A stretch of DNA of 64,000 nucleotides from Prevotella sp. (GCA_021204905.1 JAJPYN010000011.1:16803-80802), one strand, 5' to 3'; shown: positions 13,109 through 18,488, counted from the stretch's first letter. Notes: generated from the letters alone by a model not told the origin. Program-made: numbers and translations.

Positions 13109-13183
13109 GGTGCCCGTAGTTCAGTTGGTTAGAGCGTCAGATTGTGGTTCTGAATGTCGTGGGTTCGAGTCCCACCAGGCACC
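13109..13183 (+). tRNA. tRNA-His (GTG)
   Basis: I folded the cloverleaf by hand. It has an encoded G-1 opposite C73, anticodon loop TTGTGGT and T-loop TTCGAGT. There is one C-A mismatch in the acceptor stem, and no CCA is encoded. Confidence 0.9.
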
Positions 13184-13259
13184 CTGAACAAGGCGGCTTT
13201 GCTTGAAATAAATGTGAGCGGGCCGCCGTTTTAAGTTAAACGCAAATCTATTATTTCCT

Positions 13260-13955
13260 ATGTGGTCAACATTGTTTAGAGCCGTCGTTGCCGTTGTTGC
13301 CGGCGTGCTGATGGTGATGTATCCGAGCGACATCGCCCGCTGGTTCACCATCCTGTTCGGGGTCCTGTTTTTCATCTCGGGCTTCGTCTCGATAGTGTGG
13401 TATTACGTGATGCTGCGGAGGTACAACCGCGCGATGCTCGCCGCAACTTCAACCGAAGAAGAAAGCGAAATGCCGCAAGTGCATAAACCCGCCATCCCCA
13501 TCGTCGGCATCGGTTGCGCATTGCTCGGCTTGATTCTCGCGCTGATGCCCGAAACGGTGAACGACCTGCTCGTCTACGTCTTCGCCGTGATAATCATCCT
13601 CGGCGCAATAAGCGAGTTCATCGCCCTAATCTCGGTGCACATCGCCCTTAACGACTGCCAAAAAACCGCCTCGCCGCCCGTCGCCGCCCGACCCGCTTAC
13701 GGCTATTACATCCTGCCGGCACTGCTGCTCATCTTCGGCATCGTCGCGCTCATCTACGGCAAAGGCCTCCTCTCCGTGCCCTACATCTGCCTCGGCATCG
13801 CGTTCATTGTCTACGGCCTGTCCGAAGTGATCAGCCTCATCAAAACCTCCTCCGTCCGCAAGAATATCTCGCGCGCAACAATCATCGCCATCCCGGCAAG
13901 CGAAACAATTGAAGACGCCGAGGTTGTTTCTGAGGAAGGCAAAGAGAACAATTGA
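13260..13955 (+). CDS. DUF308/HdeD-like integral membrane protein
   Basis: 231 aa with about 6 TM helices and no other recognisable domain. Confidence 0.55.
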   Translation: MWSTLFRAVVAVVAGVLMVMYPSDIARWFTILFGVLFFISGFVSIVWYYVMLRRYNRAMLAATSTEEESEMPQVHKPAIPIVGIGCALLGLILALMPETVNDLLVYVFAVIIILGAISEFIALISVHIALNDCQKTASPPVAARPAYGYYILPALLLIFGIVALIYGKGLLSVPYICLGIAFIVYGLSEVISLIKTSSVRKNISRATIIAIPASETIEDAEVVSEEGKENN

Positions 13956-13960
13956 CAGCA

Positions 13961-14623
13961 ATGCCGGAGCAAAACCTAATTTCTATAAGGAAAGAAGTTT
14001 CGGTTGCGTTTGCGCCGGACATCTTTTACATCAACCTCACGCTGAGAAGCGGACACGAGACGTATGAGGAGGTGTACGAGCAGGCGCGGAGCAACAACAG
14101 CAAGGTGGCAAAGGCTGTGAAAGACGCCGGCGGCAAATCGATTAAGACAGAGGCAACCGGCTTTGAAGTAGCGACGAAGACCGTGCCTGAACACGACGAG
14201 CAAGGCAGGGAAACAGGCACGAAAATCGTCGGGCTGATACTGACGCAGAGGGTAAAAATTGAGTTTAAGCTTAATGCCGCTCTGCTTGTCAAAATGGTGA
14301 ACCTCATCGGCGAGCATATAAAAAATGCGGAATTGGAAATATTCGTCAAAGCAAGCGATTCTCATCAGTATCATTTGAAGGCAATGGAGAAAGCTGTCCG
14401 TGAATCGAAGGAATTGGCGGAGGCGATGGCAAAAGCGGGCGGCGCTGTGTTGGGCGCGATGAAATATATTCATTGTAATTCGGAAGAATGCAATATCGAC
14501 AAATTGATACGCAGGGTAAGTTGTGCGGAAGAAGCGCTTGAACTGACCGAGGATACATTGAATGCAGATGATTTCCGGCTGAATGAAACAGTCGTCGTTT
14601 CGTCAGAGTGGTATTTGCAATAG
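13961..14623 (+). CDS. SIMPL (DUF541)-domain protein without a signal peptide
   Basis: The APDIFYINLTL...GFEV...AMEKAVRESKELAEAMAKAGGAVLGAM pattern is typical of SIMPL/YggE-like proteins. The ATG lies 5 nt after the previous stop. Confidence 0.6.
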   Translation: MPEQNLISIRKEVSVAFAPDIFYINLTLRSGHETYEEVYEQARSNNSKVAKAVKDAGGKSIKTEATGFEVATKTVPEHDEQGRETGTKIVGLILTQRVKIEFKLNAALLVKMVNLIGEHIKNAELEIFVKASDSHQYHLKAMEKAVRESKELAEAMAKAGGAVLGAMKYIHCNSEECNIDKLIRRVSCAEEALELTEDTLNADDFRLNETVVVSSEWYLQ

Positions 14624-14641
14624 CGCGAAAAGCAAGGAGAC

Positions 14642-16909
14642 GTGAACAAATCGGGCTTCTCCATAGTAATTAAAGGCGTCCGGCAAGTAGGGCTGAGCGA
14701 CAAGGACGGCAAGGAGATACTGCCGTGCATTTACGACAAAATCCTCGACTTCGACGACGACGGATACATTCGTTTTCTCAAAGACGGCATATACGGCACC
14801 GTCGATTTGGAAGGAAACATCGTCATCCCGCACGCCAAAGGGCTGACCCATCTCGGCGTCTTTCACGACGGTACGGCACGGGCACAGAAAGGCGACAAGT
14901 GGGGATTGGTCGACACGAAAGGCGATGAAGTAGGAGAATTTTGTTACACGAAGATAAACGCTTGGTACAAAGACAGTTACAAAGCTTATAAGCAAGGCGG
15001 CACAACGGGCAGCTTGTCCGCTGACGGTACATTTGTCGCTTCAAAGAAGAAAGGTCGTCCCGCGCCGCAATTCAGCCATATCGCGACTTACAGAAACGAT
15101 GTTGCGCCGGCGTATATCTACAAAACCGGGTGGGTTTTCATCGACAGGGACAAGCACAGAATCAACGATTACGTCTACGAATGGATGGACCCGGTTTTGC
15201 GAAACGGCGTGTATTACGTTCGCAAAGATTCGCATCATTACGGCATCGCGCGCTACGACGGCACGCCTGTCTCGGACGTCTGGCTTTATTCTGCAATCCA
15301 TTTCGACGAAAACGGACTTGCGATTTGCTCTCAGCCGCACCGCGACGAGAACGGCAAAACGGTAATGCTTGTCAACGGGCAGCCTCGTTACGATTACGGC
15401 ATTTTCAAAATTGACGGCACGTTTCTCTTTCCGATGGTCTATTCCCAACTTCATTGGAACGATTACAAAAAGAAAGATTGCTGGTGCGCCGAAGACGATC
15501 TCGCTTGCTATCTACTTTTCCCCGACGGCACGCGCAGGATTTACAAGAAGACAAGCGCAATACGCGACGGGGTCTCTCTCCGCTGCATCCCGCCAGAAGA
15601 ATATAACAACTTCATCCCCGAAGAAGTATTTTTCAACATCTACCGGCCGAAGGTCATCACCACGGAATACTACCTGCTGTTTGAAAAGCCGACGTTCGAC
15701 CGGGCTGTCGCGACGTGGAAACCGTCCTTCAACAGCGACAAAATTAAAATATTCTTCCGCGACACGGATGCTCCGATAGACCTTAAATTTTACAAAAAAG
15801 GACGGCTGTTACGCGCCGGAGAGTTTATGGAATCTACCGACAAATTGCGCCGCCCGGTGCACAAAACGCGCTTCCTTATCCTCACGAGGATGGATGTGGC
15901 CGACTACGATTCCTTGCAAGATTACATCAAAAAAGAGGACAGCCCGTTTCGCGGAAATGTCATTCACAGCAATGCCTGCTTCGTTGTTCTCGATGTGCAA
16001 CACTGCAACGGCGTAACCCAAATCGTCTTGTTTCAGATTATCGATGCCGCCATTGTCGTTGCAAAAAAGAACAAAGCGAAGATTGATTTTTCCACTTGCA
16101 AATGGTTTCCGGACGGTCTATGCACCTTTGCTTACGAGGTTTTACAAAGTTGCATAAAACAGCCGGTGCATGGGTATTCGATGTCCGACTATTGGATCAA
16201 AGCGATGCACCGCCCGATTGGTTTAAGCGAAGACGGCAAACCCGTGCCGCTGGAATGGCAAAATGAATATACCCTGCTCACGAACACGCAAGAAGAGGAG
16301 GATTTCTATCGGGCTTACGACCGGGTCATCCGCCACGAATATTTTCATTGGACATTTATGGGATTTAAAACGATACAAAATTCAACGGTGAAAGTCGTTG
16401 TGGGCGACATCACCAAACTCGATGTTGATGCGATAGTTAACGCTGCCAACTGCACCCTTCTCGGCGGCGGGGGAGTCGACGGAGCTATCCACCGCGCGGC
16501 GGGGAAACAACTGCTCGAAGAATGCCGGACGCTGGGCGGCTGCGAGACCGGGCAGAGCAAGATTACCGGTGCATATCGACTGCCTTGCAAGAAAATCATT
16601 CACACCGTCGGACCTGTGTGGGAAGGCGGTAATGCAAACGAAGCGGCACTGCTCGCATCTTGTTATAAAACGGCGTTGAAATTAGCGCAAGAAACAGAGA
16701 TGAAAAGCATCGCGTTCCCCTGCATCAGCACCGGCGCGTACGGTTATCCGCGTCAGGAGGCGGCGCAAGTGGCAATGGATGCGATAGTGAAATGCTTGAA
16801 GCGACGCGATTATGAGGGCGACATCATCATCTGCTGTTTCACCGACGAGGATGCCGGAATTTACACCGAAGTGATACGTAAAATGCGCTGCGGCCGCTTC
16901 CTCTTTTAG
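14642..16909 (+). CDS. WG-repeat / unknown central domain / C-terminal macrodomain fusion protein
   Basis: 755 aa with a GTG start and no signal peptide. N-terminal [12 protein letters not shown]-type WG repeats are followed by a C-terminal macrodomain (aa ~583-745: [43 protein letters not shown]). Confidence 0.8.
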
Positions 16910-16949
16910 GTCGCGGGATAACCTAATATGTGTGCAAAGGCTTTGGAGT

Positions 16950-16984
16950 AAAAAAAAACGGGACGCACCATTACGCACGCCCCG
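16950..16984 (-). terminator. rho-independent terminator downstream of the CTD remnant
   Basis: On the minus strand, the stem CGGGGCG..CGTCCCG is followed by T9. Confidence 0.55.
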
Positions 16985-17031
16985 CTTACTTTATGCCGGA
17001 AGCAATCTTGCTTCACAATCTCGGAGCGATC

Positions 17032-17241
17032 TTACTTCACCAGCACTTTCTTCGTAGTCCCGTCGGAATACTTAACGATGTTCACTCCATTTGTCGGAAT
17101 TAAAACCTGCTTGCCGTCAATCGAGCAATAATCGCTGACATTTGTCTGACTGTCAACCGCCACTGCACTAATTCCGTCCACGTTCGAGTCGTCGCCGTCC
17201 ACGTCCGAGTTGTCACCTTGATTCTCGTCAACGTCCGGCAA
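17032..17241 (-). pseudogene. 3' remnant of a T9SS-cargo gene (acidic linker plus C-terminal sorting domain only)
   Basis: The 69 codons end in ..IDGKQVLIPTNGVNIVKYSDGTTKKVLVK, like the CTDs at 37.8, 53.6, 60.0 and 63.7 kb. There is no ATG (the first codon is TTG), and the frame closes immediately upstream. Confidence 0.6.
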
Positions 17242-17334
17242 GTTTTCTACTTCCGTTATGTTATGTTAGTGCATACGTCTGTCTAATCGTAGTCTTAATT
17301 CTATAATATTTATGCTGAAGATACAATTATACCA

Positions 17335-17706
17335 TCACCAATTCCTTTTGCCCGGTTTGCGCCTATTGCTGGCAAGGATGGCGGCATTCTCTTCCTCTGC
17401 CGTCAAGGGAACGGGATTCTTGCGGTTGCACTCGAGCCACTTATCCAACTCGTCTTGATAGAGAACATATCTCTTGCCCGGCTTGGTGGCGGGGATTATA
17501 CCTGCACTCAATTTCATGTACAGGGTGCGGAGCGGGATCCTCAAATATTCCGCCGCTTCCTCCACCGACATCGGGCGATGTTTGTTCTCTTTACGCCCGA
17601 AATACTCTCTTTGCAGATTGACAAGCATCTGCCTCATGCCGATCACCTCATCCCGAAGCTCGGCGACGACCTGCGGAAGGTCGTTGAATGTAATTTGTTC
17701 GTTCAT
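17335..17706 (-). CDS. excisionase-family helix-turn-helix DNA-binding protein
   Basis: MSVEEAAEYLRIPLRTLYMKLSAGIIPATKPGKRYVLYQDELDKWL is an HTH_17/MerR-like excisionase motif. The start is trimmed to MNEQITF. Confidence 0.75.
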   Translation of the reverse strand: MNEQITFNDLPQVVAELRDEVIGMRQMLVNLQREYFGRKENKHRPMSVEEAAEYLRIPLRTLYMKLSAGIIPATKPGKRYVLYQDELDKWLECNRKNPVPLTAEEENAAILASNRRKPGKRNW

Positions 17707-17839
17707 AGTTCTTTGTAGATTAATCGGCGGCAAAAGAACGGAATAATGTGCCGATGATTTCAGTTGCAAGCAATAATCGGGCGATAATCGTCAAATCAAT
17801 GAAAATAATGAAATCTTATTTACTACACTTAAAGGCAAT

Positions 17840-17870
17840 GTATATAACCTGTTGTTAATCAGTTATATAC
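17840..17870. repeat. perfect 9-bp inverted repeat GTATATAAC-N13-GTTATATAC
   Basis: I read it directly from the sequence, between the ASCH-like stop and the HTH gene start. It could be an operator or a terminator. Confidence 0.7.
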
Positions 17871-17940
17871 ACGCAAATTGATTGCGAGCGGCAACGAATA
17901 GCGGCAACGTCGGGCAAGGAACAACTTTTCGGCCCGGATG

Positions 17941-18321
17941 TTATTTGAGGTTGGTTGCGAGTACTTTGCCTAATGTGATGACGAAGAGCGGCATACCTTC
18001 GGGAGCGTCGGCTTCGCTCGGAAATTCTTTTCTGAACTCGTCGTCAACAAACCAAAGTTCAATAGTTTTAACTTCGCAGTCAAGAAACCACTTGTTATTG
18101 TAGGGATAGAAGTGGATAACATCGTACTCTTTCAAGTCGGTTGCCTGATGCGGGTTGTCGGGGTCGTTAAATTCACATAAGCGCACAGCCCAGAAGTCTG
18201 ACCACGCGCGGAACTCGTGCTTCTTCGTGCCTGCAAGAATTTCAAGGGCGTACTCCTTTCGCATCACGCATTTCAACACGCGCAATTCCTGCTCTTGCCG
18301 CTTCGTTTCTTTCTTTGCCAT
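17941..18321 (-). CDS. ASCH-like (PUA-fold) domain protein
   Basis: 126 aa. EILAGTKKHEFRAW resembles the ASCH GxKxxExR signature. Confidence 0.45.
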   Translation of the reverse strand: MAKKETKRQEQELRVLKCVMRKEYALEILAGTKKHEFRAWSDFWAVRLCEFNDPDNPHQATDLKEYDVIHFYPYNNKWFLDCEVKTIELWFVDDEFRKEFPSEADAPEGMPLFVITLGKVLATNLK

Positions 18322-18353
18322 AATCGATTTATCAGGTGGTTTCGTTTATTTGG

Positions 18354-18361
18354 CAAATATA
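18354..18361 (-). promoter_or_regulatory. -7 box (TATATTTG) for the ASCH-like gene
   Basis: The reverse complement of caaatata is TATATTTG, 33 nt upstream of the ATG at 18321. Confidence 0.4.
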
Positions 18362-18395
18362 TTAAATTTCTTTTTCGAGCCGAAATTTACACGAG

Positions 18396-18438
18396 GTTAT
18401 TGCTACTTAAAAGCAAAGTTATTGCTATTTGGAAGCAA
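18396..18438. repeat. two adjacent 21-bp direct repeats (GTTATTGCTAyTTrrAAGCAA)
   Basis: The copies are at 18396-18416 and 18418-18438, at the right edge of the AT-rich islet just before the symporter stop. Confidence 0.7.
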
Positions 18439-18488
18439 GCTTTTTAAGGCCAAATAGCGGCATTAAGACTTAGTGATAAGGCGAAGGG

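Follow-up and report, generated by a model that had tools for sequence, protein, structure and literature searches.

A stretch of 64,000 nucleotides from Prevotella sp. (GCA_021204905.1 JAJPYN010000011.1:16803-80802), referred to here in its full length as the window, contains a two-gene cassette in which a small SIMPL-domain gene is followed, after a spacer of 18 nt, by a gene encoding a 755-aa protein composed of WG repeats, a predicted ADP-ribosyltransferase (ART)-like domain and a macrodomain (Table 1). The ORF listing confirmed the extent of the larger gene, its GTG start and its place just after the SIMPL gene, as given in an original prediction that was made from the sequence alone, and the start is credible because homologs aligned with the protein also begin with MNKSG[FY]. 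In a 19-residue hydropathy scan the protein showed no signal peptide, as anticipated, and no transmembrane segment, the peak value of 1.7 falling inside a predicted β-hairpin of the ART core. Its closest homolog is 59% identical and the exact protein is not on record, PADLOC-DB v2 gave zero matches for either protein of the cassette, and a description of the WG/ART-like/macrodomain architecture was not found in literature searches, which agrees with the earlier statement that it was not known to be described.

Table 1. Features of the cassette and its surroundings (positions counted from the first letter of the window).
Feature	Position	Strand	Basis or remark
tRNA-His	13110-13184		0.8 kb upstream of cassette
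Low-GC islet: cassette and three small minus-strand genes	13952..18400	.	GC contrast
Cytoplasmic SIMPL-domain protein, 220 aa	13961..14623	+	Probable ATG at 13961; ORF opens with TTG at 13952
Shine-Dalgarno-like AAGGAG	14634..14639	+	2 nt 5' of GTG; read straight from the sequence
Whole gene, 755-aa WG-repeat/ART-like/MacroD protein	14642..16909	+	GTG start; ORF listing, Pfam, NCBIfam
N-terminal WG-repeat module, aa 1-140	14642..15061	+	Pfam WG_beta_rep; co-occurs with SIMPL partner
Second WG-repeat module, aa 141-320	15062..15601	+	Repeats at aa 163-301 readable in the sequence
Middle domain, aa 321-580	15602..16381	+	AF2 model, Foldseek
Predicted ART-fold core of middle domain, aa ~366-467	15737-16042	+	Followed by helical extension, aa 468-580
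Codons R373-D374, β1 motif Y/F-R-D-T-D (ART 'R' motif)	15758..15763	+	Predicted strand 369-375
Codon Q460, position of catalytic Glu of ART ExE motif	16019..16021	+	Start of strand past hairpin turn; predicted secondary structure
MacroD/YmdB-type macrodomain, aa 581-747	16382..16882	+	Pfam Macro; NF001664; MACROD2 alignment
Hairpin, 13-bp stem and T-run	16956..16987	-	Between gene and convergent small ORF; consensus scan only
Excisionase-type HTH_17 gene	17335-17769	-	TIGR01764 E 5e-15; PHROG excisionase families
phrog_625-like gene	17941-18321	-	PHROGs match
69-aa ORF	in islet 13952..18400	-	Small gene of the islet

The neighbors of the 755-aa gene are DUF308, SIMPL, HTH_17 and phrog_625-like genes. 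The low-GC islet named in the original prediction is borne out by GC contents of 0.48 for the SIMPL gene, 0.51 for the 755-aa gene and 0.48-0.51 for the three genes downstream, with flanks of 0.57-0.60. Neither an integrase nor direct repeats flanking the islet (the 3' end of the tRNA-His or another att-like pair) were found, and it is the GC content and the excisionase-like gene that suggest that the islet may be mobile. A sigma-70 promoter scan is uninformative for a Bacteroidales-like genome such as this.

The N-terminal part of the protein carries WG repeats, as predicted (Pfam WG_beta_rep, E 1.5e-11, in two scored stretches), and about seven G-h-h-D-x-x-G hairpin units can be read in residues 17-267. 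The first of its two modules, in which many columns are conserved at ≥90% among 74 aligned sequences, is detected in most SIMPL-carrying loci, and the second is missing from some relatives, which are variants of ~550 aa.

The middle domain had been described in the original prediction as unrecognized, and at the level of sequence this still holds, since none of Pfam, NCBIfam, PADLOC and PHROGs matches residues ~320-580, and profile searching of the PDB sequences was also empty. No ART family was matched by any of 38 members (Pfam, E ≤ 5), nor did PDB-sequence profile searches with two alignments find an ART. An ART fold, which was among the folds that had been suggested for a Foldseek search, is nevertheless what the AF2 model of the domain gives (pLDDT 89.9, pTM 0.86): the 50 best listed PDB matches are all ART-fold proteins (ExoT, 6gnn_C, E 3e-5; Tre1, 6drh, E 2e-4), and many of the top matches among viral models are annotated as phage ADP-ribosyltransferases. 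The 50 best listed PDB matches are likewise all of the ART fold for a second, independent AF2 model (pLDDT 93.1), that of the distant stand-alone relative P0151, for which 66 matches have E ≤ 1e-3 and the best is Tre1 (E 6e-6, rmsd 2.2 Å over 98 columns). The R-S-E ARTs matched by the two models are ExoT/ExoS, Tre1, C3, iota, XopAI and HopU1, and the families of the two domains are homologous (hhalign probability 100%, E 7e-43; profiles ~28% identical). By structure prediction alone, all sequence-level searches having failed, the middle domain is predicted to be a divergent ADP-ribosyltransferase-fold domain in which Gln replaces the catalytic Glu, and no other ART-like copy was found in the 64-kb window.

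Among the traits of the R-S-E clade, the domain has the fold, the β1 Arg and the β2 Ser/Thr and lacks the catalytic Glu of [QE]-x-E, where Q460, R373 and [ST]399 are mapped onto the ART motifs by predicted secondary structure and not by residue-level structural superposition. Conservation of R373, D374, [ST]399, R410, D451 and Q460 extends over 129 relatives of ≤50% identity. In the aligned relatives, R373 is kept in 109/119 and D374 in 117/119, and [ST]399, of the STS-like motif in β2, is kept in 117/122 with a predicted strand at the expected place. The position of Q460 is occupied by Gln in 115 of 124, by Glu in none, and is invariant in the core family.

The ART-like domain defines a family of ~330 clusters that is otherwise unannotated. 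Its members stand alone or are fused to Macro (the core family), ARH (P0133), NADAR (P0227, P0170), a DSP-PTPase phosphatase, 'PTP-SAK' (P0186), SseB (P0218), HIRAN or CpXC, and further fusions are to Sel1 and to DUF2314/Imm34. For the C-terminal domain of the 'type B' relatives a PDB sequence search was empty and the sole lead is a sub-threshold match to DUF6994. Stand-alone relatives sit among metabolic genes. The stand-alone members, of 170-250 aa, have no adjacent neutralizing or immunity gene in the three contexts examined, two of which are in sequenced isolate genomes, and no fusion to a toxin-delivery domain (RHS, PAAR, LXG or similar) occurs among 62 long relatives; together these observations argue against a constitutive toxin. 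A polymorphic or secreted toxin was rejected given the lack of both delivery-domain fusions and signal peptide or transmembrane segments. A phage origin was rejected as well, and the family is taken to be cellular and not phage-borne because neither the middle domain nor SIMPL has a PHROGs family and, of 2.9 million IMG/VR contigs, just 2 encode a relative.

The C-terminal ~165 aa are a macrodomain, as the original prediction had stated, with the motifs quoted there present and matches to both Pfam Macro (PF01661, residues 599-711, E 1.4e-47, 161 bits versus a cutoff of 22) and NCBIfam NF001664, 'O-acetyl-ADP-ribose deacetylase' (215 bits versus a cutoff of 200). Its best PDB matches are MACROD2 (4iqy, E 7e-52), MACROD1 (E 1e-51) and YmdB (E ~1e-46), and the 60 PDB matches listed include no DarG or TARG1 entry. 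N600, N603, G608-G611, D613, H617, G698 and Y700 are present and align with MACROD2 (NxxN, GGGGVDGxIH, ISTGxYGYP), so that all of the catalytic and ADP-ribose-binding residues, whose possible absence the original prediction had raised, are kept, and the domain is predicted to be a MacroD-type hydrolase. MacroD-type enzymes strip ADP-ribose from acidic residues and from phosphate-linked nucleic-acid ends, and they process O-acetyl-ADP-ribose and ADP-ribose-1''-phosphate. The comparison with the antitoxin DarG that had been drawn earlier fails because the macrodomain is of the MacroD/YmdB type and not of the DarG/TARG1 type.

About half of the relatives (~60% of cluster representatives) lack the macrodomain or carry a degenerate one, and the ART-like site is as well conserved in these as in relatives whose macrodomain is intact. 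Relatives in the clearest defense islands are among those with a degenerate macrodomain or none, and they keep SIMPL and the ART-like site. The conserved core is the ART-like site with its SIMPL partner, not the macrodomain, and eraser catalysis cannot be the universal core activity because about half of the cassette relatives keep this core without an intact macrodomain. The form closest to the DarG comparison, a fused DarTG-like toxin-antitoxin in which the ART domain modifies DNA and the macrodomain is its obligate cis-antidote, would account for an ART fold and a macrodomain in one protein, for the defense-island contexts and for the HIRAN (which binds DNA 3' ends) or NADAR (which reverses guanine ADP-ribosylation) of some relatives. 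However, 45 lineages with a degenerate or missing macrodomain show no change in the ART-like site, which would be intolerable for an obligate cis-antidote of a toxic transferase; this role of the macrodomain was rejected, and the reading, which is extremely improbable and largely refuted already, conflicts also with the MacroD type of the macrodomain, with the lack of any Pfam match to DarT (DUF4433) in the neighbors or the middle domain, and with the missing catalytic Glu.

Characterized bacterial members of the SIMPL family are periplasmic and have signal peptides. The SIMPL protein of the window (PF04402, E 3.9e-16, 60 bits versus a cutoff of 25) aligns at its N-terminus with the partner SIMPLs of other loci, and neither it nor the 25 partner SIMPLs examined have a signal peptide or hydrophobic N-terminus; they start directly with the first β-strand. 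In each of the 27 loci with upstream DNA a SIMPL gene immediately precedes the WG-ART-like gene, and in a search from SIMPL the WG-ART-like gene adjoins it in 43 of 50 loci, with an ARH gene instead in five. These ARH genes match Tri1 (6dre_A), their loci are without an ART-like domain, and one of the five lies in a neighborhood of the same type as some cassettes, with WYL and Sel1 genes. SIMPL, which the original prediction had named as a mere neighbor, is an obligate partner of the WG-ART-like gene.

Strict co-inheritance of a small partner with a polypeptide that combines both folds could also reflect an endogenous switch like DraT/DraG or SirTM/MacroD, in which the macrodomain would remove the ADP-ribose that the ART-like domain attaches to SIMPL or to another host protein, SIMPL being the component under regulation. 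The existence of ARH-SIMPL pairs and of eukaryotic macro-PARPs that combine the two folds fits this as well. To our knowledge, however, characterized ART transferases have an acidic catalytic residue at the position equivalent to Q460, which is never Glu here; in addition, the eraser half has decayed in many representatives with the 'writer' site unaltered, and the ARH-SIMPL loci have no writer, all of which makes such a switch improbable.

The family of the 755-aa protein is sporadic, with ~100 clusters at 90% identity that come nearly all from gut and rumen Bacteroidales, and its neighbors vary between loci. Relatives are often found in defense islands or mobile elements, where they adjoin GmrSD, McrBC, RM, WYL, relaxase or TraG genes; in 22 loci the cassette is accompanied by WYL regulators and Sel1 genes, and in 14 by GmrSD-like genes. 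The surroundings of the window copy are free of WYL, Sel1 and restriction genes, and a T6SS context was not seen, although T6SS effectors had been proposed as possible neighbors. Three of the eight contexts with annotated neighbors have housekeeping-looking surroundings, and this, together with the metabolic surroundings of stand-alone relatives, the macrodomain's score above an equivalog cutoff for O-acetyl-ADP-ribose deacetylase and conserved arginines that could bind phosphate, would fit ordinary NAD or ADP-ribose housekeeping, either by a YmdB/MacroD deacetylase or ADP-ribose-1''-phosphatase with extra domains or by a variant Tpt1-like phosphotransferase followed by macrodomain clean-up. 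Such a function is nonetheless highly improbable: the family is patchy and its genomic location varies among related Bacteroidales, the window copy lies in a low-GC islet, the frequent associations are with defense and mobile-element genes, the macrodomain has decayed in about half of the family, and the Foldseek matches are R-S-E toxins and not Tpt1. The original prediction of a conflict or immunity protein, which a widespread core-genome architecture would have weakened, is partly supported by the non-housekeeping architecture, the sporadic distribution and the defense and mobile contexts, while its role as immunity protein or eraser, as opposed to effector, is drawn by inference.

The main rival reading, that the ART-like domain is itself the effector, is possible, if on balance somewhat unlikely. 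The domain would then consume NAD+, either as an NAD(P)+ glycohydrolase like TNT, Tse6 and Tne2 or as a non-canonical enzyme of another sort, in an abortive-infection or toxin-antitoxin-like cassette in which the WG repeats and SIMPL sense a trigger or restrain the enzyme and the macrodomain (ARH or NADAR in relatives) provides accessory ADP-ribose binding or clean-up. The domain is the sole element conserved everywhere, with its site kept irrespective of the state of the macrodomain, and its Y372, R373, D374, R410, D451 and Q460 resemble an active site. In the active glycohydrolases TNT, Tne2 and Tse6 the place of diphtheria toxin's catalytic Glu is taken by Gln, which is accompanied by Arg and Asp residues (PMC6398120). 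The defense-island contexts fit too, as does the gene order of the cassette, in which the small SIMPL gene comes first and the large gene second with ORFs that overlap or nearly abut, which resembles antitoxin-toxin operons. On the other hand, TNT must be co-produced with its antitoxin IFT (PMC6398120), while the stand-alone members have no adjacent antitoxin. There is also no Pfam TNT or ART sequence match, TNT and Tse6 are not among the 50 best listed Foldseek matches, the repeated fusions to ARH, NADAR, Macro and phosphatase domains are hard to explain if the product is free ADP-ribose, and SIMPL pairs in related loci with a plain ARH hydrolase.

What the cassette looks like is an undescribed ADP-ribose-centered conflict module of gut Bacteroidales, because it joins an ART-like domain with Gln to the constant company of SIMPL and to frequent defense islands. 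The reading that we prefer, at a probability of roughly 0.4, is that SIMPL and the 755-aa protein are a horizontally mobile two-gene cassette on the defender side of an ADP-ribosylation conflict, which, as the Bacteroidales form of such host systems, would sense and reverse foreign ADP-ribosylation, for example that from phage ARTs or injected ART toxins. The ART-fold domain, which is proposed not to be a classical transferase because Gln replaces the catalytic Glu, would keep the NAD+/ADP-ribose pocket with its Arg and Ser/Thr motifs and could act as the core that recognizes or senses a ligand or adduct with ADP-ribose in it. Binding of the target or trigger would fall to the WG repeats and the cytoplasmic SIMPL, possibly in contact with each other, and the C-terminal domain would be the output, in the window copy a MacroD hydrolase with an intact predicted catalytic site.

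In favor of this defender-side reading is the fusion set of the family (ARH, NADAR, Macro, DSP-PTPase, SseB, HIRAN), which is the same set of partners as in anti-ADP-ribosylation systems predicted earlier (PMC9503650). The ART fold of the two models, the conserved site without Glu, the adjacency of SIMPL, the replacement of the WG-ART-like gene by ARH beside SIMPL, the WYL, Sel1, GmrSD, McrBC, RM, relaxase and TraG neighbors, the stand-alone members without a neutralizing gene and the intact macrodomain of the window copy are counted for it as well. Against it count the degenerate or missing macrodomain of about half of the cassette relatives, the constellation of conserved Arg, Asp and Gln, which resembles an active site more than a site of passive binding, the mapping of Q460 by predicted secondary structure, the lack of a PADLOC model, and the window copy's own surroundings, which lack WYL, Sel1 and restriction genes. 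A further alternative, unlikely but by no means negligible, is an unrecognized anti-phage or anti-toxin immune system of gut Bacteroidales, formed by SIMPL and the WG/R-S-Q protein, whose core would be a new class of ART-fold domains acting on NAD+ or ADP-ribose (NADase, adduct hydrolase or sensor) and in which SIMPL would be a genuine immune component. If so, SIMPL, a bacterial relative of animal IRAK1BP1/SIMPL of NF-κB signaling, would join the immune modules common to bacteria and animals. The SIMPL link may bear on the origin of the animal protein.

ADP-ribosylation and NAD+ are central in phage-host and interbacterial conflict. The host countermeasures against foreign ADP-ribosyltransferases that are known to us are mostly predicted and rarely demonstrated, and a two-gene cassette of Bacteroidales that abound in gut and rumen is concrete and testable. 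A family of ~330 clusters with a predicted ART fold and Gln at the catalytic position raises the question of whether it comprises NADases, readers or a new kind of eraser, and its fusions tie it to domains that process ADP-ribose (ARH, NADAR, Macro and DSP-type phosphatase). The bacterial cytoplasmic SIMPL gains its first consistent functional context, beside ADP-ribose hydrolases and often in defense islands, and new annotations could be given to thousands of proteins now called 'macro domain-containing', 'WG repeat-containing' or 'hypothetical'.

Among known systems, the ARG (ARH)-centered host systems of Actinobacteria, Planctomycetes and Proteobacteria, which are predicted to counter viral ADP-ribosylation and are defined by the absence of an ART, are predictions only (Iyer, Burroughs, Anantharaman and Aravind 2022; PMC9503650, section 3.8). 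They share with the present family a network of ARH, phosphatases of the rhodanese-phosphatase superfamily (DSP-PTPase), SseB-type chaperones, Macro, NADAR, HIRAN, WYL and restriction-type neighbors. Their description includes neither SIMPL and the WG module (the terms 'SIMPL' and 'WG repeat' do not occur in PMC9503650) nor an ART-like domain of the R-S-Q kind, and ARPP, an unknown component there, has a conserved Cys and a different predicted fold. Their characteristic eraser, to which no canonical ART or sirtuin is coupled, is seen here in the intact macrodomain beside a sole ART-fold domain that lacks the catalytic Glu, while the nearby WYL or Nudix regulator is absent from the window and present as WYL in the 22 related loci, and the coupling to phosphatase, SseB, Macro and NADAR is found at the level of the family, the window protein having Macro only.

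In Tre1-Tri1 (a Serratia T6SS ART toxin and its ARH immunity protein; PDB 6DRE/6DRH) an ART fold of the R-S-E type is likewise linked with a protective ADP-ribose hydrolase, and Tre1 heads the structural matches of the stand-alone relative and ranks high among those of the window domain. Tre1, however, is a secreted toxin with the catalytic Glu whose immunity protein comes from a separate gene, whereas the window domain has Gln, is cytoplasmic, is fused to MacroD and WG and not to a delivery domain, and has no detectable sequence similarity to Tre1. TNT, Tse6 and Tne2 are likewise domains of ~200 aa with an ART-related fold, and they have a Gln and functionally important Arg and Asp residues (PMC6398120) that may correspond to the conserved Q460, R373, D374, R410 and D451, with Q460 equated to TNT Gln822 by analogy only. 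Unlike these enzymes, which are secreted and have dedicated immunity proteins, the window domain has no match to PF14021, TNT and Tse6 are absent from the 50 best listed matches in both PDB searches, and it resembles classical R-S-E ARTs, whereas TNT is without the ARTT and other ART motifs.

DarTG, which acts in phage defense, also couples an ART-fold enzyme genetically to a macrodomain hydrolase, but DarT, whose target is DNA, belongs to the H-Y-E type and has a catalytic Glu, the DarG macrodomain is TARG1-like and the two are separate proteins, whereas here the macrodomain is of the MacroD type, about half of the family can dispense with it, and SIMPL is the partner. Macro-PARPs have antiviral roles and combine both folds in eukaryotes. 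In PARP9, PARP14 and PARP15 a MacroD-type macrodomain and an ART-fold domain share one polypeptide. According to a recent preprint, the ART domain of PARP9 is considered catalytically impaired and its first macrodomain an active eraser (bioRxiv 10.64898/2026.08.12.744356). These proteins are eukaryotic, belong to the H-Y-E (PARP) clade and have the opposite domain order, and the likeness is at the level of fold only. MacroD1, MacroD2 and E. coli YmdB, to whose group the C-terminal 165 aa genuinely belong, differ in being housekeeping proteins that have a single domain or unrelated N-termini. Finally, the partner protein matches the same Pfam model as SIMPL/BP26/YggE and animal IRAK1BP1 (PF04402) but, unlike BP26 and YggE, belongs to a clade without signal peptide that is dedicated to WG-ART-like-Macro or ARH neighbors.

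The middle region of the 755-aa protein (residues ~320-580), which the original prediction had called unrecognised, has no match to any sequence family in Pfam, NCBIfam, PADLOC, or PHROGs, but structure comparison identifies it as a predicted ADP-ribosyltransferase (ART) fold. Residues 320-582 were modelled with AlphaFold2 from 73 homologues (pLDDT 89.9, pTM 0.86), and the model was compared with the PDB using Foldseek; the 50 best matches listed were all ART-fold proteins. These included ExoT/ExoS (E 3e-5), Tre1 of the Tre1-Tri1 toxin-immunity pair, C3 exoenzymes, and XopAI, as well as Vis, iota/CDTa/VIP2, the ART from a Listeria ART-ARH pair, and anthrax lethal factor through its ART-like domain. 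Annotated phage ARTs were also among the best matches in a library of viral models, independently of the PDB search. A second AlphaFold2 model (pLDDT 93.1, pTM 0.90) was made of P0151, a distant stand-alone relative whose profile is ~28% identical to that of the window domain, and it matched ARTs exclusively (66 matches at E <= 1e-3), with Tre1 as the top match (rmsd 2.2 Å over 98 columns). The alignments of P0151 and of the window domain are homologous (hhalign probability 100%, E 7e-43). TM-scores were modest (0.3-0.48) because the alignable part is a core of only ~100-150 residues. Profile searches with the ART-like family against Pfam and PDB sequences gave no match, and by this measure the family is an orphan.

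To map the putative active site, conserved residues were placed on the predicted strands by secondary structure rather than by residue-level superposition, and conservation was counted over 129 representatives that are at most 50% identical to one another. The ART arginine is carried by the beta-1 motif Y-R373-D374-T-D (R373 in 109 and D374 in 117 of 119 representatives), [DE]397-x-[ST]399 occupies the location of the STS motif ([ST]399 in 117/122), and R410 (120/122) and D451 (122/127) are also conserved. At the [QE]-x-E location, the start of the post-hairpin strand, lies Q460 within the motif G-x-T-Q460-I-L-L, which is Gln in 115 of 124 representatives and Glu in none. Since the Arg and Ser/Thr motifs are conserved and the Gln is never Glu, the domain is termed R-S-Q, and the models indicate that it would keep the residues of an NAD+/ADP-ribose pocket with the catalytic Glu systematically swapped. 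The Gln is no proof of inactivity, as TNT, Tne2, and Tse6, all of them NAD(P)+ glycohydrolases, carry Gln at the position of the catalytic Glu of diphtheria toxin (PMC6398120).

An exhaustive HMM search recovered 330 clusters of the ART-like family at E <= 1e-3. Many members are stand-alone "hypothetical" proteins of 170-250 aa from Flavilitoribacter, Chryseobacterium, Flavobacterium, and gut Bacteroidales, and in three contexts (Chryseobacterium and Flavilitoribacter isolate genomes and one metagenome contig) they are solitary, with no conserved neighbor beside them. In other members, the domain is fused to ARH (P0133), NADAR (P0227, P0170), the DSP-PTPase "PTP-SAK" (P0186), SseB (P0218), HIRAN with or without radical SAM (P0162, P0164, P0179), or to Sel1, DUF4272, or DUF2314/Imm34. 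A further fusion combines CpXC, the ART-like domain, and a C-terminal region with a sub-threshold match to DUF6994, which is predicted to be similar to HNH/type IV restriction enzymes (PMC11701544). No toxin-delivery domain was seen among the fused members. A "type B" cassette was also observed at four loci of relatives (L051:4841-7620, L034, L035, and L036), where a CpXC zinc-ribbon is encoded by a separate upstream gene or fused to the WG/ART-like protein, the C-terminus of which has no macrodomain and is a Cys-rich and helical region with the same sub-threshold DUF6994 match; the L051 cassette has a GmrSD-like gene on one side and a radical SAM gene on the other.

The element common to all of the evidence is ADP-ribose: the ART-fold pocket is repeatedly fused to ADP-ribose hydrolases, and the SIMPL clade always has an ADP-ribose hydrolase as its neighbor, in the form of a macro-containing protein or of an ARH. 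The reading that we favor, with a probability of about 0.4, is that the cassette of SIMPL and WG-ART-like genes is a defender-side module that senses and reverses ADP-ribosylation. The R-S-Q domain would recognise NAD+/ADP-ribose or an adduct, the WG module and SIMPL would bind the target or trigger, and the C-terminal domain would provide the output, in the window copy that of an active MacroD eraser. A defender-side module accounts for the eraser fusions, for stand-alone copies that do no harm, and for the lack of delivery domains. One weak point is that the conserved Arg/Asp/Gln constellation looks catalytic, and on this side stands the main rival, in which an abortive-infection system would have the ART-like domain as its effector, a TNT-like NADase, a reading we regard as possible if rather unlikely.

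SIMPL is the obligate partner of the WG-ART-like gene. A SIMPL gene (~225 aa) lies directly 5' of it in the window and in 27/27 genome or metagenome loci with upstream DNA, and the two ORFs overlap or are a few nt apart regardless of the other neighbors. No signal peptide was found in these partner SIMPL proteins. The reverse search, in which metagenome contigs were queried with SIMPL, gave 50 loci with sufficient downstream DNA, and the gene directly 3' was the WG-ART-like gene in 43, McrBC was the neighbor in two, and in five the place was taken by an ADP-ribosylhydrolase of the ARH family (confirmed by comparison with ARH3, DraG, Tri1, and Lmo0067), a replacement for which the defender-side reading also accounts. 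A writer-eraser switch acting on SIMPL would be in keeping with so constant a pairing, has the eraser decay described below to contend with, and seems improbable. The five SIMPL-ARH loci (L087:3974-5566, L101, L096:1999-4066, L098, and L099) carry the same cytoplasmic SIMPL clade; GmrSD-like genes are near four of them (L087, L098, L099, and L101), and the remaining one, L096, carries genes for WYL and Sel1. In comparison with nine other partner SIMPLs, the window SIMPL reaches 29-34% identity; those nine have many invariant columns in common.

The macrodomain was correctly recognised in the original prediction (Pfam Macro, residues 599-711, E 1.4e-47), and the catalytic and ADP-ribose-binding residues N600, N603, G608-G611, D613, H617, G698, and Y700 are all present. 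The likening to DarG fails: by family the domain is assigned to the MacroD/YmdB-type hydrolases and not to DarG/TARG1, with 215 bits to NCBIfam NF001664 (O-acetyl-ADP-ribose deacetylase; cutoff 200) and, as the nearest solved structures, MACROD2 and MACROD1 from human (E ~1e-52) and YmdB from E. coli. The macrodomain is not the core of the family. Among 73 cluster representatives of WG-ART-like proteins, its signature is intact in 25, nearly so in three, degenerate (GGGGxDxxxH lost) in 40, and missing in five, and the decay reaches the closest, 50%-identical relatives of the window protein. Decay in half of the family is the second weak point of the defender-side reading. The key ART-like residues are equally conserved whether the macrodomain is intact, nearly intact, degenerate, or missing, which largely refutes a fused DarTG-like toxin-antitoxin, a reading invited by the joining of an ART fold to a macrodomain and now hardly credible.

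The cassette often has WYL regulators and restriction systems in its vicinity. WYL regulators and a Sel1-repeat gene lie beside it in 22 loci, including those of Hallella multisaccharivorax DSM 17128 and Prevotella sp. AGR2160 and one ARH-SIMPL locus, and GmrSD-like genes in 14. Macrodomains are degenerate in 11 and intact in two of the WYL-linked copies, versus 18 and 26, respectively, of those without the link. The recurrence of WYL with Sel1 points to an extended system of four genes in some lineages, chiefly the ones whose macrodomains are degenerate. The WYL and Sel1 loci are L006-L008, L047/L048, L031, L032, and 15 more. The clearest defence context is L047, with the order TraG, HSP20, WYL, Sel1, GmrSD, SIMPL, WG-ART-like gene, two WYL-WCX genes, AAA_15/21 ATPase, and type I RM. 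The window copy has an intact macrodomain, and within 64 kb there is no gene for WYL, Sel1, or GmrSD. Annotated neighbors were available for eight distinct contexts, five of which are mobile-element or defence and three housekeeping-like, and a role in housekeeping NAD/ADP-ribose metabolism, to which the latter would correspond, is quite improbable.

The predicted low-GC islet was evident at the window locus (Table), with a GC content of 0.48-0.51 from the SIMPL gene to ~18.4 kb versus 0.57-0.60 on both sides, ending before an alanine symporter gene. It contains the SIMPL gene, the 755-aa gene, a 69-aa ORF, and HTH_17 and phrog_625-like genes; the last two appear to be mobile-element remnants, in an islet where neither an integrase nor flanking repeats were found. 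The DUF308 gene is probably outside the system, given its native GC and its lack of conservation beside the cassette elsewhere. The window SIMPL ORF opens with TTG at 13952, a 4-nt overlap with the end of the DUF308 gene, and alignment with orthologues suggests that ATG 13961 (MPEQNLISI...) is the real start. The ORF listing returned the 755-aa gene as predicted, 18 nt beyond the SIMPL ORF, and its start is credible because homologues open with the same MNKSG[FY]. The WG repeats were likewise recovered (Pfam WG_beta_rep, E 1.5e-11), with ~7 G-h-h-D-x-x-G hairpin units readable in residues 17-267, and neither a signal peptide nor a membrane segment was found, in line with the predicted cytoplasmic location. 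The closest homologue of the 755-aa protein is 59% identical, making the window cassette a divergent member. The strong hairpin between the convergent 755-aa gene and 69-aa ORF is likely a terminator, and the 22-nt repeats, just 5' of the phrog_625-like gene, may serve in regulation or recombination.

Table. Features at and beside the low-GC islet
Feature	Position	Strand	Remarks
tRNA-His	13110-13184		followed by DUF308 gene
DUF308 (HdeD-like) membrane protein gene	13260-13955	+	directly 5' of SIMPL, overlapping; native GC
Shine-Dalgarno-like AAGGAG	2 nt 5' of GTG	+	read in sequence
755-aa protein gene	14642-16909	+	GTG start
Hairpin	16956-16987		T-run on - strand; 13-bp stem, 7 G-C pairs
69-aa acidic ORF	17032-17241	-	21-nt tandem duplication (17174-17215), DGDDSNVDG-like repeats; no Pfam or PHROGs family matched
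Excisionase-family HTH_17 gene	17335-17769	-	weak match also to MADS system protein Mad1
phrog_625/ASCH-like small protein gene	17941-18321	-	
Tandem 22-nt unit, two copies	18396-18439		GTTATTGCTACTTAAAAGCAAA / GTTATTGCTATTTGGAAGCAAG; intergenic, right edge of islet

Conflict systems based on ADP-ribosylation are of an already known kind, and the predicted host countermeasures to viral ADP-ribosylation (Iyer et al., 2022; PMC9503650, section 3.8) share with the ART-like family the partners ARH, rhodanese-phosphatase-type phosphatase, SseB, Macro, NADAR, HIRAN, and WYL. SIMPL, WG repeats, and the ART-like domain, however, are absent from that description (PMC9503650), and, as the original prediction supposed of the architecture, the combination of an orphan ART-fold family, a cytoplasmic SIMPL, and MacroD turned up neither in the searchable literature nor in PADLOC, Pfam, or NCBIfam. 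Beside these known systems, the cassette has a realistic chance of harboring an enzyme or sensor of a new class, and of placing SIMPL proteins in immunity.
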